A program made the position numbers and the translations under genes. 64,000 nt of DNA from an uncultured virus (IMG/VR IMGVR_UViG_3300029787_000020) (Duplodnaviria; Heunggongvirae; Uroviricota; Caudoviricetes). Below the pieces are notes generated by a model. The model did not search any database, was not told the origin of the DNA, and was given only the letters and a program-made list of their open reading frames with translations. Below, piece by piece: positions 9,901-20,546 of the stretch. Position 1 is the first letter of the stretch; each line of letters begins with the position of its first letter. The stretch lies in the IMG/VR virus record IMGVR_UViG_3300029787_000020; one strand, given 5' to 3'.

Positions 9901-11419
9901 ATTAGAGGTAACTTCTGGTATTGCCACCATAACTGATACCTTAAAGGTAGGAACTGGTATTACTGCTCATGCTGGTGTTATAACTGCCACTAAATTTATT
10001 ATTGAAGGATCAACTGGATTTTTAAAGGCAGATGGATCTATTAATACTGGTACTTTTGCTGATGGGGCTATTTCTGATATTGTGGATGATACTACACCTC
10101 AGTTGGGTGGAGACTTAGATGGTAACAGTAAGAGTATTCACAGTATTGGTATTGCCACCATAACCGATACCTTAAAGGTAGGAACTGCCATCACTGCTCA
10201 TGCTGGTGTTATAACTGCCACTACATTTGATGGCGATCCATCAAATACAAATGCAAACTCTGCATGGTTGGTAACTGCTAAAGGTGATAGTTCTGCATAT
10301 CATTTTACAGGGCCAGGTCAAGATGGTGCAAATGATGATGATCCAGATTTATATTTGGTAAGAGGTCAGAGATATATTTTCACGCATAATGCAGGTGCTT
10401 CACATCCATTTGAAATACGATTATCTTCAGGTGGTTCAGCATATAATGATGGAGTTACAAATAATGGTGCATCATCAGGAAATATAATATTTAATGTTCA
10501 GCATGATGCACCTCCACGACTTTACTATCAATGTACAAATCACACTGGTATGGTTGGAAACATCTATATTGTAGGTGGCCCACAAGTTATATCTGGTATC
10601 ATAACTGCAACAACATTCAGTGGTTCAGGTGCATCACTCACAAGTTTACCAGCAGCAAACTTAACTGGAAATCTTCCAGCAATTAGTGGTGCTAATTTAA
10701 CTGACGTTTTAACAACCACTGGTGATGGGGCAAGTATAATTAATGGTAATATAGTTGGAACAGCATTATCAGTTAGTGGTATTTGTACTGCTGCCACATT
10801 TAAAGGCCCAAATAATGGGGGAATCGAAGCTGTATATTATGGTGATGGTAGTAATTTATCTGGTATTACTGCAGATGGTGTTGGTGCGATTGGTGGTCTT
10901 ACTGTTAAAACTGAAGGGTCTACTGTTGGAACAGCAGGAAGTATTTCTAATTTAGATTTTAGAGGTGCTGTAAATGTAATCGCCAATGAGGGTGCATCAG
11001 GAGTCGCAACAATGACTGTTGCTGGTGTTTCAACAGGTATCGGAACTTTCTCTGCATCTCCAGGTACAGCTATTAATATTGATGAAATGCAATATTATGA
11101 TTCGTCAACAACGGTTTATCCATCTATGAATTTTATGGAGTACACTGTGTATATCATGCATGATACTGGAATACAGGCACAAAAAGCACTTGTGATGTAT
11201 GATTTTGGTGCATCACCAGTCACTGGTGATCACCCTATTATACATTCAAATGAATATGCCATAATGCATTCTACCTCTTCTCCAATTGTAAGTATTGGAG
11301 CTACAATCGATCCAGCAGCTTATCCAAGTTCAAGAAAAGTTTATCTAACAGCAACTCCCACTTCTGGTGTGACTGGTTTGACTACTTTTAGAATTCTTAG
11401 AATAGGGGAAAATATGTAA
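6971..11419 (+). CDS. Long tail-fibre-like protein with internal repeats and two cupredoxin-like domains, module A gene 3
   Basis: 1482 aa G/T/S/V-rich; repeated VSGISTF, GDGSxL and DTLKVGTAITAHAGVITAT motifs. Confidence 0.85.
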   Translation: MAKYISGRVKDLKVGVSGYSESKVTLNVVGTVSANDIVIGDGSETGISSSSIKVGTAITMDAASGIISAKSFRGPSGINATFVGDGSGLTGVVGSGSGVIVYDGNDAVGTAGTINFGTNLSVSDISAGVVTVTASIPSTDNATNLLGGFARASELDVSGISTFVGVATFNNGLHVISGITTVASSLEVGSAITAYSSTGSIYANRYYGDGQYLTGIQATGNVSATNLSVTGVSTFVGVSTFNDGLIVHAGITTLSDTLEVGTGITAHAGVITATKFDGNATGLTGTPDIDVSDIVGTALSITGIATFTDAWMKPAKLEVGTGITIGTNGQAIFAGIVTATSIDVNTIVGTSLSVSGMSTFTGITTFNDIVKVGSAITMFSATGIVSATKFIGDGSQLINVSASGEGVQIRDSGNPIGAAGTINFGSSLSVDLTDSVATITGIGTQFIKSESINVSGLSTFVGLSTFNDGLIVTSGITTVGFITANDLSVSGIATATTFKGALTGDVTGTVNTASQPNITTVGTLGSLNVTGNVGIGTTIFTDAVQQSNDSVLAVGILTAYEIYSSVYGKFTGSSVTADSLVGTALSISGIGTVGDTLKVGTAITAHAGIITATKFNVYGGSSSQFLKADGTLDSTNYAGSTDSVVGTALSISGIGTVADTFKVGTAITAHAGIVTASAFAGFKYLQAPFGSTTTFTVTVASKDATHRYNGTGSSNAYLINGVQAPVLTLTPGRTYRFTNDNTGSHPFKFYYEADRTTLYTTGVNFQNSYTEITVSDTTPNVLHYQCTAHPYMGNAVITNSNVVDSPYPATLRDGLSVTGISSVGSAITMYGATGIVSATSFYGSGENLTGIDATAIKFGGVVKAQANNSGVYITGIATISDTLKVGTAITAHAGVITATTFKGALTGNADTATLATNASGLTGIPSITVQDITAEMVSIGGTLTYEDVTNIDSVGLITARKGIHVVSGAGVSIAAGGLEVTSGIATITDTLKVGTGITAHAGVITATKFIIEGSTGFLKADGSINTGTFADGAISDIVDDTTPQLGGDLDGNSKSIHSIGIATITDTLKVGTAITAHAGVITATTFDGDPSNTNANSAWLVTAKGDSSAYHFTGPGQDGANDDDPDLYLVRGQRYIFTHNAGASHPFEIRLSSGGSAYNDGVTNNGASSGNIIFNVQHDAPPRLYYQCTNHTGMVGNIYIVGGPQVISGIITATTFSGSGASLTSLPAANLTGNLPAISGANLTDVLTTTGDGASIINGNIVGTALSVSGICTAATFKGPNNGGIEAVYYGDGSNLSGITADGVGAIGGLTVKTEGSTVGTAGSISNLDFRGAVNVIANEGASGVATMTVAGVSTGIGTFSASPGTAINIDEMQYYDSSTTVYPSMNFMEYTVYIMHDTGIQAQKALVMYDFGASPVTGDHPIIHSNEYAIMHSTSSPIVSIGATIDPAAYPSSRKVYLTATPTSGVTGLTTFRILRIGENM
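7736..10228 (+). repeat. Six dispersed ~57-nt near-identical repeats (DTLKVGTAITAHAGVITAT)
   Basis: Copies start near 7736, 8753, 8945, 9611, 9935, 10166, e.g. gataccttaaaggtaggaactgccatcactgctcatgctggtgttataactgccac. Confidence 0.9.
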
Positions 11420-13166: not shown

Positions 13167-14195
13167 ATGTCACCACTGTCAGGATCTGTAGGCACAGGAG
13201 GAAATCGTACAAGTGAAGCAGTGGCATTTTTTGGAAAAATGCTTGGAGGTAATGGAAGTGCCACTGGTAGTCAATCATGGGAATATAATTACGTTACCAG
13301 CACCACTTGGACTGTTCCAGTTGGTGTTACTAGAATTAATGTTCTATGTATTGGAGGTGGAGGTGGAGGTAGTGGTTCTCGTACGTATGGTATAGATCTT
13401 TTTGCAGAAGGTAATGGAAATGGTGGAGCTGGTGGAGGTGGTGGTTCTTTAATGTATAAAACTAATTATAATGTAACTCCTGGAGACGTATTGGAAATCA
13501 CTGCTGGTAAGTTTGGGGAAGGCAGACTTGGCTCCCAAAATGGAGAAGATGGTGGAGATAGTATCGTTAAGAATGAATCACATGGTGATACCATAATATG
13601 TTCGGCAGAGGGTGGAGAAGGTGGAGGATACAGCAGTGATAGCACTTGGCCTGGTGGTACTGGTGGCTCAACATCTCAAGGTGTTGGAGACGGTGGTGGA
13701 AATGGTGGAACAGGTGGAAATGGATATACACCAACCATAGAAGATGCAGCAACAGCATGGGGCGGTGGCGGTGGTGGTGCTGGTGGATATAGTGGAAATG
13801 GTGGAAATGGTGGTCAGGGAGTTACTAGTGGGGGTTTTTATATTAGTAATAGTGCTACTGCGGGTTCTGGCGGTGGCGGTGGCGGTGGTGGAAAAGATGA
13901 ACGTTCAACAGAAGGTTACGTCATTAATTCTGGTGGTGGTGTAGGTAAAGATGGAGAGGGTTCATCCGTAGAGAGTGGTTCAGCAGGATCTAATGATAGT
14001 GCTGGTGAAGGTGGTAGTGAAGGTGCTGACGGTGGTGATGGAAGTAGTCTTTCATCAAGTTACGGTGGATTGTATGGCGGTGGCGGTGGTGCAAGAAGTA
14101 ATCATGATTCTGATGATGGTGGTGACGGTGGCGAAGGAGCAGTGATTATAATATGGGGTTGTGGTGTATCTTATCCAAAAGGTACTGCAACATAA
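13167..14195 (+). CDS. Glycine-rich adhesin-like virion protein
   Basis: TWTVPVGVTRINVLCIGGGGGG...GGEGAVIIIWG poly-Gly architecture. Confidence 0.75.
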   Translation: MSPLSGSVGTGGNRTSEAVAFFGKMLGGNGSATGSQSWEYNYVTSTTWTVPVGVTRINVLCIGGGGGGSGSRTYGIDLFAEGNGNGGAGGGGGSLMYKTNYNVTPGDVLEITAGKFGEGRLGSQNGEDGGDSIVKNESHGDTIICSAEGGEGGGYSSDSTWPGGTGGSTSQGVGDGGGNGGTGGNGYTPTIEDAATAWGGGGGGAGGYSGNGGNGGQGVTSGGFYISNSATAGSGGGGGGGGKDERSTEGYVINSGGGVGKDGEGSSVESGSAGSNDSAGEGGSEGADGGDGSSLSSSYGGLYGGGGGARSNHDSDDGGDGGEGAVIIIWGCGVSYPKGTAT

Positions 14196-14202
14196 ATTTA
14201 AG

Positions 14203-14231
14203 TTGACAATTCATAATAAATCTATTATAAT
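14203..14231 (+). promoter_or_regulatory. Perfect sigma70-type early promoter
   Basis: TTGACA (14203-14208), 17-nt spacer, TATAAT (14226-14231). Confidence 0.9.
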
Positions 14232-14237
14232 ATTCTT

Positions 14238-14339
14238 ATCTTCAATATCCTTGTAGTTTCGGGATTGAAGTTACTTCTCTGTGGTGGGAGAAGTGTGTTG
14301 GTGAAAAAACAGGGAGGATTTTTCCTCCCTTCTTTTTTT
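14238..14339 (+). ncRNA. Candidate ~100-nt small RNA
   Basis: Lies between the promoter and a terminator; hairpins CTTCAAT..ATTGAAG (14240-14270) and ACTTCTCT..GGAGAAGT (14273-14294); no ATG-initiated ORF. Confidence 0.65.
14311..14339 (+). terminator. Intrinsic terminator, possibly bidirectional
   Basis: AGGGAGGA-tttt-TCCTCCCT then TCTTTTTTT; an A-run precedes the stem. Confidence 0.85.
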
Positions 14340-14371
14340 ATAAATTACTATATCAATATTAATTAATAAAA

Positions 14372-14614
14372 ATGAATTTTGCAGTTTATTCTAAAGATGG
14401 ATGTCCATATTGTGATAAAGTAAAGGCAGTTTTAGAGTTGACAGGAAGTAAGTTTGTGGTATATAATTTAGGAGAACACTTTGATAAAAAAGAATTTTAT
14501 CAGGAATTTGGAAATGGATCAACATTTCCACAGGTAACTTGTGATTCTAAAAAATTAGGAGGTTGTGTTGAAACAATTAAATTCCTCAGAGAAAATCAAA
14601 TCATCAAAGTCTAA
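14372..14614 (+). CDS. nrdC: Glutaredoxin
   Basis: VYSKDGCPYC, TFPQV and LGGC motifs. Confidence 0.92.
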   Translation: MNFAVYSKDGCPYCDKVKAVLELTGSKFVVYNLGEHFDKKEFYQEFGNGSTFPQVTCDSKKLGGCVETIKFLRENQIIKV

Positions 14615-16237: not shown

Positions 16238-16266
16238 TTGACTATATACTGTACATGTGTTATTAT
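16238..16266 (+). promoter_or_regulatory. sigma70-type promoter
   Basis: TTGACT, 17 nt, TATTAT with TGn extension; predicted start ~16273, right at the first aptamer. Confidence 0.75.
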
Positions 16267-16273
16267 TAACACA

Positions 16274-16323
16274 ATCGTTCATCCTGATACATTCAGGACG
16301 CAAGTAAGCCGACTCGGAACGGG
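16274..16323 (+). ncRNA. Glutamine-II (Downstream-peptide) riboswitch aptamer 1
   Basis: CGTTCA-TCCTGA[tacat]TCAGGA-CGCAA..CCGACT..GGAACGG; P1 CGTTC/GAACG; upstream of a DUF4278 peptide. Confidence 0.75.
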
Positions 16324-16325
16324 TT

Positions 16326-16575: not shown

Positions 16576-16686
16576 ATGGCAAAAGTCACTTATCGTGGTG
16601 TTGTATATGACACCAACAACAAAAAAGCTCAGCAAACAAAAGAGGTCGAACTCACATATCGTGGTATCGCTCACACATCTAAGTAA
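16576..16686 (+). CDS. DUF4278-family small peptide (36 aa)
   Basis: SD AGGAG; MAKVTYRGVVYDTNNKKAQQTKEVELTYRGIAHTSK with two TYRG motifs; below the ORF-track size cutoff. Confidence 0.85.
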   Translation: MAKVTYRGVVYDTNNKKAQQTKEVELTYRGIAHTSK

Positions 16687-16783: not shown

Positions 16784-16811
16784 AAGGAGGGGTTGTTACC
16801 CTCCTTTTTTT
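16784..16811 (+). terminator. Intrinsic terminator
   Basis: AAGGAGGG-gttgtta-CCCTCCTT plus T-run; TGnTATAAT promoter element follows immediately. Confidence 0.85.
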
Positions 16812-16841
16812 GTGTTATAATATATAAAATAAAAATTTTTT

Positions 16842-19923: not shown

Positions 19924-20546
19924 AAACTATATCATATGAAAATCCTTTTCCACATTTAATTGTTAATGATTTTTATGATAAAAATGAACTAACTTTAATA
20001 TGGGAGGAACTTAATTTTTTTACTAAACCAGATAAACTTCTCAAAGCTAAAAATTATGGTGGAATTGAAGATAGAACAAATGCTCGTGCCGTGGTATTGG
20101 ATGAGGTATTTCTAACTCATCGTCAAATGTCTAATATTCTAACTGTCAATAGAAAATTATTTAAAATTGGCATATTAAAAGAATTTGGTAAAATTCATGA
20201 TTGTTGTTCTATTGCCGAAGATTGTAATTGGGATATAACTAAATTGAGATACTATCATAATGGTGAATATTATGAACCACATACTGATAGATCTATGCAA
20301 TTTTTAGGATTTTCTTATTTCTACAAAGAACCTAAAAAATTTAGTGGTGGTGAACTAGTATTTCCTAAGTATAATTATCAATTGACATGTGAAAATAATT
20401 CAATTATAATAATGCCTGGTTGGGTTGAACATAGTGTGAATGAGGTAAAAATTGAAAATTCTGATTATTATGATGGTTGGGGTAGGTATGCCATTACAAG
20501 TTTTTTTGGCACTAATGACAAAAAAATCAATAAACAATATAAATGA
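19920..20546 (+). CDS. 2OG-Fe(II) oxygenase
   Basis: YYEPHTD (HxD), FSGGEL.F, H.V.EV, GRYAI. Confidence 0.88.
   Translation: MKTISYENPFPHLIVNDFYDKNELTLIWEELNFFTKPDKLLKAKNYGGIEDRTNARAVVLDEVFLTHRQMSNILTVNRKLFKIGILKEFGKIHDCCSIAEDCNWDITKLRYYHNGEYYEPHTDRSMQFLGFSYFYKEPKKFSGGELVFPKYNYQLTCENNSIIIMPGWVEHSVNEVKIENSDYYDGWGRYAITSFFGTNDKKINKQYK

Follow-up and report, generated by a model that had tools for sequence, protein, structure and literature searches.

A candidate small RNA gene with a consensus promoter and its own terminator precedes the glutaredoxin gene in a subset of T4-like cyanomyoviruses

The window, by which we mean the whole stretch of 64,000 nucleotides (nt) analyzed here, belongs to a T4-like cyanomyovirus of a marine low-GC clade; its G+C content is low (~30 to 39%), and no tRNA genes were found along its length. 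Tail-fiber/baseplate-like genes extend up to position 14195, and a glutaredoxin gene begins at position 14372, followed by small conserved phage open reading frames (ORFs), ThyX, PhoH, and an exonuclease. The intergenic gap between them (14196 to 14371) holds the RNA module described here, which sits where the late structural genes meet the early gene cluster. An initial annotation of this DNA, made from the letters alone, had placed a glutaredoxin gene after the RNA, and a match to PF00462 agrees with that assignment. The features of the locus are listed below.

13167-14195, plus strand: glycine-rich gene 5' of the RNA (PF21722, phrog_4474), with many GGTGGT codons
14203-14231, plus strand: sigma-70-type promoter TTGACA-17-TATAAT (-35 at 14203-14208, -10 at 14226-14231; score 12/12)
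14238-14271, plus strand: hairpin P1, whose lower stem is topped by the upper stem UCC/GGA, with UUGUAnCUUU as the conserved loop
14272-14295, plus strand: hairpin P2, with a pyrimidine-rich 5' arm, a purine-rich 3' arm, and the 6-nt loop GUGGUG at 14281-14286
14296-14310, plus strand: linker, mostly unpaired in folds, with UUGGUG at 14298-14303, of which GGUG is invariant in the family
14311-14339, plus strand: intrinsic terminator (stem-loop 14311-14330, U-tract 14331-14339)
14339-14345, plus strand: TATAAAT, a T4-type late-promoter word that lies 26 nt before the glutaredoxin ATG and belongs to the downstream gene
14372-14614, plus strand: glutaredoxin (nrdC-like) gene (PF00462, E = 5.7e-13; phrog_22), the constant 3' neighbor of the RNA

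The promoter had been described as an exact TTGACA-17-TATAAT element, and its score of 12/12 leaves that description intact. Perfect TTGACA/TATAAT sites number three in the 64-kb window against 0.13 expected, a count that none of 100 shuffles reached. The predicted transcription start is A14238, and P1 of the window begins with an A. The other two perfect sites lie at 14438 to 14467 and at 20382 to 20410 on the plus strand. The former also scores 12/12 and is located within the glutaredoxin coding sequence, from where it could, judging by its sequence, drive genes past glutaredoxin; related glutaredoxin genes carry TTGACA-17-TATACT or TATAAT at the matching place.

Downstream of the predicted start, positions 14238 to 14339 fold into two hairpins and a terminator hairpin with a free energy of -35.2 kcal/mol. 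Shuffles of the same segment gave -22.6 ± 2.8 kcal/mol (z = -4.5), and none of 200 folded as well, which bears out the earlier claim that ~100 nt fold into two hairpins ending in a strong terminator. Folded alone, P2 reached -11.0 kcal/mol (z = -4.6) and the terminator -14.6 kcal/mol (z = -3.7), while P1 gave only z = -2.0. P1 and P2 are adjacent, 0 to 2 nt apart. The linker that follows them reads GGUGAAAAAAC in the clade of the window, where the UUGGUG motif is continued by GAAAAAAC. The terminator stem-loop comprises 8 pairs (5 of them G-C) and a 4-nt loop and is followed by TCTTTTTTT; together with the A-run that precedes it, the element also reads as a minus-strand terminator. It ends 32 nt before the glutaredoxin gene and lies 116 nt past the stop of the late-type gene upstream, where it is the sole terminator. 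Because it closes the late operon before it as well, its conservation is in part unrelated to the RNA. As the initial annotation stated, the segment has no ATG. The accompanying statement that it is G-richer than its flanks holds for one side: the G content of the RNA is 25%, against 17 to 18% downstream and 27 to 33% in the glycine-rich gene upstream.

To find relatives of this element, we used the glutaredoxin protein as an anchor, retrieved 80 related IMG/VR loci, and read their upstream regions. A covariance model (R1) was built on nine homologues; it scored the window at 112.8 bits and 15 of the 80 anchored loci at 84 to 114 bits. Two further motif scans of IMG/VR were independent of the glutaredoxin gene. 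The first returned 14 model matches among the 120 matches listed, and the tighter one at least 114 true loci among the 120 matches listed. When 76 sources were searched with the model, 71 matched (E ≤ 1e-6, 76 to 114 bits), and the five without a match were previously suspected false positives. Promoter and neighbor counts given below were taken over the loci of the tighter scan (at least 114 true loci, 110 of them with enough upstream DNA). The glutaredoxin start directly follows the RNA in 109 of 112 listed relatives, and another ORF lies between the two in the remaining 3. This extra ORF, which begins MS(L/I)VASKSKRRLIYGFG(I/V)NDADY, is found in L237, L267, and L254 (= L055) between the terminator/late-promoter word and the glutaredoxin gene, and it may be a mobile nuclease-type gene.

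Among 50,697 phage records, the only cultured carrier is Synechococcus phage S-SRM01, whose host is Synechococcus sp. KCZYC6 and in which the RNA, at record positions 10942 to 11105, occupies an unannotated gap before the glutaredoxin gene and the gene order is the same as in the window. BLAST of the 176-nt region against these records gave only short chance matches; with relatives as queries, it recovered S-SRM01 alone, plus a terminator-only match in ACG-2014f. A model search upstream of glutaredoxin in AG-345-L05, S-SKS1, AG-345-F15, ACG-2014d, P-TIM68, and P-SSM2 found no match. A strict motif scan of 185,579 prokaryote species, with one genome each, returned two matches, in a Polyangiaceae metagenome-assembled genome and in Microbacterium, both of which failed the model; no host or prophage copy was seen in this strict-pattern scan. 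By sequence and model score, then, the window RNA belongs to a family that is kept in a subset of T4-like cyanomyoviruses.

The promoter is kept across this family. TTGACN-17-TAnAnT stands before the RNA in all 110 listed relatives whose upstream DNA is long enough; the spacer is 17 bp in every case, and the element is perfect in 89 of them. The first base of P1 falls 6 nt past the -10 hexamer, that is, at the predicted +1, in 109 of the 110, which puts a helix at the very start of the predicted transcript. A further arrangement was seen in 25 of the 110 listed relatives (among them L210, L214, L221, L227, L232, L258, L259, and L272), in which TGTCAA-N3-5-TTGACA forms a palindrome with the -35 hexamer as one of its halves. 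Before the palindrome lies a conserved block (..ACAAACCTAGTCTAC..) that can be read as a leftward TTGACA-17-TAGACT promoter, which would place two promoters back to back in divergent orientation; this arrangement is absent from the window.

Structure is conserved as well. In an alignment of 71 distinct sequences, 91.7% of cells were paired versus 82.4% when shuffled, percentages that are inflated because the alignment was fitted to the model structure. Twenty of 27 base pairs have changed on both sides. The covariation score was 0.402 versus 0.222 for shuffled alignments, none of 500 shuffles reached the observed value, and the score fell to 0.10 to 0.18 when partners were slid by 1 to 3 columns; 18 sequences showed the same trend. 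The changes are spread over all hairpins: on the same fitted alignment, helices 1 and 2 of P1 are 94.8% and 88.0% paired, with 6 of 11 pairs changed on both sides, helix 3 of P2 is 97% paired, with 7 of 8 pairs changed, and helix 4 of the terminator likewise has 7 of 8 pairs changed. RNAalifold recovered the same helices from a plain MAFFT alignment, and single-sequence folds of four divergent members gave the same architecture. While the stems vary, the GUGGUG loop of P2 and the GGUG of the linker are identical in 71 of 71 sequences. Lack of structural conservation among related phages had been named beforehand as the observation that would count against an RNA gene; instead, the search for homologues upstream of nrdC in cyanophages yielded a family with compensating changes, and this comparative evidence supports the view of the module as a self-contained, promoter-to-terminator, non-coding, and structurally conserved unit.

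In a mutual-information scan, Watson-Crick covariation was confined to P1, P2, and the terminator, and thus there was no sign of a pseudoknot or an alternative antiterminator. Pairing between a P2 arm and a terminator arm, examined by eye, was inconsistent between clades. On the mutual-information result, we rejected a riboswitch or attenuator with a conserved terminator-competing pairing or a multi-helix pocket. In the L203-type clade (e.g., L203:160-259), a mini-hairpin of 6 bp whose loop contains GUGG can form from the linker, GUGUUGGUGGUAACAC, and the GGUG motif would therefore be shown in two loops there.

Rfam 15 (4,227 models, including Yfr1, the Yfr2 family, PhotoRC, wcaG, manA, and glnA) found only a glutamine riboswitch in the whole window. 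Between 14100 and 14450, 16 weak matches appeared at E ≤ 10, mostly on the terminator, the best at 20.9 bits against a threshold of 56. The comparison with Rfam had been proposed earlier, and it assigned the RNA segment to no described family. Our full-text searches of the literature on cyanophages and small RNAs found no description of the RNA. The cyanophage RNAs that we find named in PMC9964418 and PMC12197685 are CfrI, PhotoRC-II, wcaG, manA, glnA, and abiF, which for T4-like cyanophages amounts to CfrI and a handful of cis elements; the window RNA does not appear in this list. The predicted RNA would be a new family among phage-encoded small RNAs.

The glutaredoxin gene has promoters other than the one that precedes the RNA. 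In 66 of 114 listed relatives, the linker itself is an extended -10 promoter, TGnTAnAAT (GGUGGUAUAAU), which the other 48 do not have; the clade of the window has lost the inner TGGTATAAT promoter from its linker. Judging from the spacing, transcripts from this inner promoter would begin within the terminator's 5' arm; they could not form the hairpin and would thus escape termination. Such nesting is economical in its use of promoter and terminator, as a promoter placed in the linker would start within the very stem that it has to pass. After the terminator, TATAAAT is present in 108 of 112 listed relatives, mostly 20 to 26 nt before the ATG. The same word served as the T4 late-promoter query for cyanophages in Sullivan et al. 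2010 (PMC3037559).

Where the RNA is missing, a plain or extended -10 element lies directly before the glutaredoxin gene, and some loci are natural loss alleles. L035, L038, and L040 are decayed alleles that retain the inner -10, TATAAAT, and an intact glutaredoxin gene but no longer have the outer promoter or the GUGGUG loop; the upstream ORF enters the remnant of P1, and in L035 the stop codon of that ORF lies inside the remnant. L033 has only a -10 element, the terminator, and TATAAAT, and the RNA is absent. Taken together, these sequences show the RNA module to be an accessory unit placed on a pre-existing promoter/terminator scaffold, and, as the glutaredoxin gene has its own promoters, it behaves as an add-on (a "moron"). 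The module is under purifying selection where present, yet losable.

The element has an intrinsic terminator of its own directly after the structured part, a promoter of its own that relatives keep, and a non-coding structure preserved by compensatory changes, as an sRNA gene would. On these sequence features, we consider that 14203 to 14339 probably encodes a free-standing, early, and stable phage sRNA that shows two GGUG motifs and acts in trans. Upon DNA entry, the consensus promoter would be used by host RNA polymerase carrying the primary sigma factor, as the type of promoter suggests. The transcript, of ~100 nt, would form P1 first and then P2 and be released at the strong intrinsic terminator. 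With P1 at its 5' end and the terminator helix at its 3' end, both ends of the RNA would be held in helices, a build seen in stable bacterial sRNAs. The exposed GUGGUG of the P2 loop and GGUG of the linker are the most likely acting motifs; they may pair in trans with an RNA containing CACC(A) or titrate an RNA-binding factor, in the manner of the repeated short loop motifs of sponge RNAs.

Within the phage genome, duplex energies between the exposed loop/linker and the start regions of the window (n = 63) were in no case better than with random 60-mers, the best duplex (-13.1 kcal/mol) lying at the 5% level of the background. CACCAC and CCACCA occur 15 and 16 times on the coding strand versus 72 and 116 times on the other strand. 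The coding strand is rich in the GGUGG words that the RNA shows and poor in their complements, and the upstream gene at 13167 to 14195, full of GGTGGT codons, contributes to this richness. Four public sequencing runs that contain the stretch have contigs covering parts of the region at low depth, with no transcript start or end visible; two of these are labeled RNA-Seq of metagenomic source and may be DNA. In run X2, whose nature is uncertain, one 102-nt contig (depth 2.8) spans 14231 to 14302 and folds back onto 14260 to 14231.

A more specific form of the trans-acting reading, which we hold to be doubtful, is a putative early decoy, a bulk RNA whose two GGUG motifs would soak up a host factor within minutes of infection. 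Candidates for that factor are a G/U-binding, RRM-type cyanobacterial RNA-binding protein and the CACCA-3' ends of uncharged tRNAs. If true, this would be the first case of a lytic cyanophage using an RNA sponge to take over its host.

Action in cis, the main rival reading, is a possibility that we regard as unlikely. The segment would then be a leader in which nascent hairpins, with or without a factor at GGUG, make polymerase read through the terminator into glutaredoxin and the early cluster, as HK022 put RNAs or lambda nut sites do; as a simple attenuator, it would set the amount of early transcription entering the cluster. In put and nut, two neighboring hairpins (or a hairpin and a single-stranded box) are likewise transcribed right behind an early promoter and ahead of the terminator guarding the early genes. 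The likeness to the window RNA is one of layout, with no known sequence relation, and consists in the order of early promoter, two adjacent hairpins, conserved single-stranded box, terminator, and genes. The attachment of the RNA to one position, with the glutaredoxin start next in 109/112 listed relatives, also agrees with a leader, as does the observation that wherever the inner promoter is missing (48/114 listed), the outer one is the sole sigma-70-type promoter before the glutaredoxin gene. Loss of the inner promoter in the clade of the window fits a cis role equally, since early expression of glutaredoxin there would need terminator read-through. Unlike put and nut, however, most listed members of the family have promoters that bypass the terminator, and many related phages do without the module. 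The bypassing promoter in 66/114 and the late-type promoter after the terminator in 108/112 listed relatives make the glutaredoxin gene independent of read-through; phages without the module appear to express the same cluster from a plain -10; and the 12/12 promoter at 14438 to 14467 can serve genes beyond glutaredoxin. Nor does the family show a conserved antiterminator pairing, covariation outside the three hairpins, or similarity to Rfam cis-regulatory families.

It is also improbable that the segment has no function at the RNA level, with a terminator that ends the late tail-fiber operon, a promoter that restarts early transcription, and hairpins that stabilize or insulate. The terminator is well placed for such a role as the sole one behind the upstream late-type stop (116 nt), L033 presents the scaffold of -10 and terminator without P1 and P2, and hairpins at transcript ends are generally known to protect RNA. 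A promoter situated before the terminator cannot, however, restart transcription of the downstream genes. Moreover, invariance of the GUGGUG loop and GGUG (n = 71) amid varying stems is unexpected for mere stabilizers, and the outer promoter is at or near consensus in 110/110 listed relatives.

The initial annotation had further proposed that the RNA may be a sponge or mimic for host Yfr1/Yfr2-type RNAs, on the ground that GTGGGAGAAGT at 14284 to 14294 matches the reverse complement of ACUCCUCACAC at 9 of 11 positions. The match is real, and PMC2190773 confirms ACUCCUCACAC as the Yfr1 motif. Relatives also lend it some substance, as 58 of 71 have a 7-10/11 match in the same alignment column, with a mean best match of 8.0 versus 7.0 in shuffles; in addition, Yfr2 acts on Yfr1 via a near-complementary motif (PMC6778093). 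Even so, it is very improbable that the RNA sponges or mimics the host sRNAs Yfr1, Yfr10, or Yfr2 through GUGGGAGAAGU. Most of the match (8 of 11 bases) falls in the 3' arm of P2, which is 97% paired (on the fitted alignment) and covaries with its partner, so that these bases are neither accessible nor conserved as a seed. A score of at least 9 was reached by 103 of 3,550 shuffles, the similarity is largely an effect of two purine runs, and no Yfr family of Rfam matched at E ≤ 10. Yfr2, as described in PMC6778093, carries its anti-Yfr1 motif at a free 5' end, unlike the phage RNA. We therefore rejected a Yfr2-type antagonist of Yfr1/Yfr10, which needs an accessible and conserved motif complementary to ACUCCUCACAC.

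A small protein, such as the product of the 33-codon TTG frame that is open in the window at 14265 to 14366, has next to no probability, as that frame passes through the terminator, 18 of 71 relatives share with the window a segment devoid of ATG, the longest ATG frame falls, because of indels, in three phases relative to GUGGUG (29, 14, and 10 sequences), substitutions in the stems are compensatory, and no reading frame is conserved among the 71 sequences. A Chi-like reading of GTTGGTGG, a G-quadruplex, an origin-primer RNA, and pairing with the 16S 3' end were likewise rejected, on sequence only, as not conserved across clades or at odds with the released-terminator design.

The trans-acting sRNA that we favor has partial counterparts among known RNAs. 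Like Yfr1 and the phage sRNAs reviewed in PMC12197685, it is predicted to combine a promoter of its own with a hairpin at the 5' end, a conserved motif left exposed, and a hairpin terminator, and it shares with the latter their phage origin; Yfr1 consists of two stem-loops around an unpaired conserved motif (PMC2190773). Neither sequence nor model similarity links the window RNA to them, and the predicted RNA has two short repeated motifs in place of one long seed. Among T4-type lytic phages, another likeness is offered by RNAs C and D of phage T4, which are small, stable, non-coding RNAs of unknown function. They are processed from the transcript of a tRNA gene cluster, whereas the window RNA would be transcribed from a promoter of its own and end at its own terminator, beside the glutaredoxin gene. 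To our knowledge, very few regulatory RNAs of lytic phages have been described. T4-like cyanophages rank with the commonest viruses of seas and lakes, and here a compact, strongly conserved RNA gene with a near-perfect host-type promoter is found in well over 100 phage contigs that range from low-GC marine lineages to freshwater ones. With knock-out alleles in nature and a cultured phage-host pair, the use of an sRNA by cyanophages in host take-over can be tested directly.

Two other elements were observed farther along the window. The glutamine riboswitch (glnA RNA, RF01739) lies at 16274 to 16325 on the plus strand, with a score of 35.1 bits that is barely above the gathering score of 35; a promoter-like site (16238 to 16266) precedes it, and a 36-codon DUF4278 ORF (16576 to 16686) follows. 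At 16784 to 16821, also on the plus strand, a TG-extended -10 promoter, TTGTTA-17-TATAAT, shares part of its sequence with a terminator hairpin (AAGGAGGG...CCCTCCTT). The RNA model matches this site weakly (18 bits) and in its terminator part only, and the site is a further example of a promoter and a terminator packed together.
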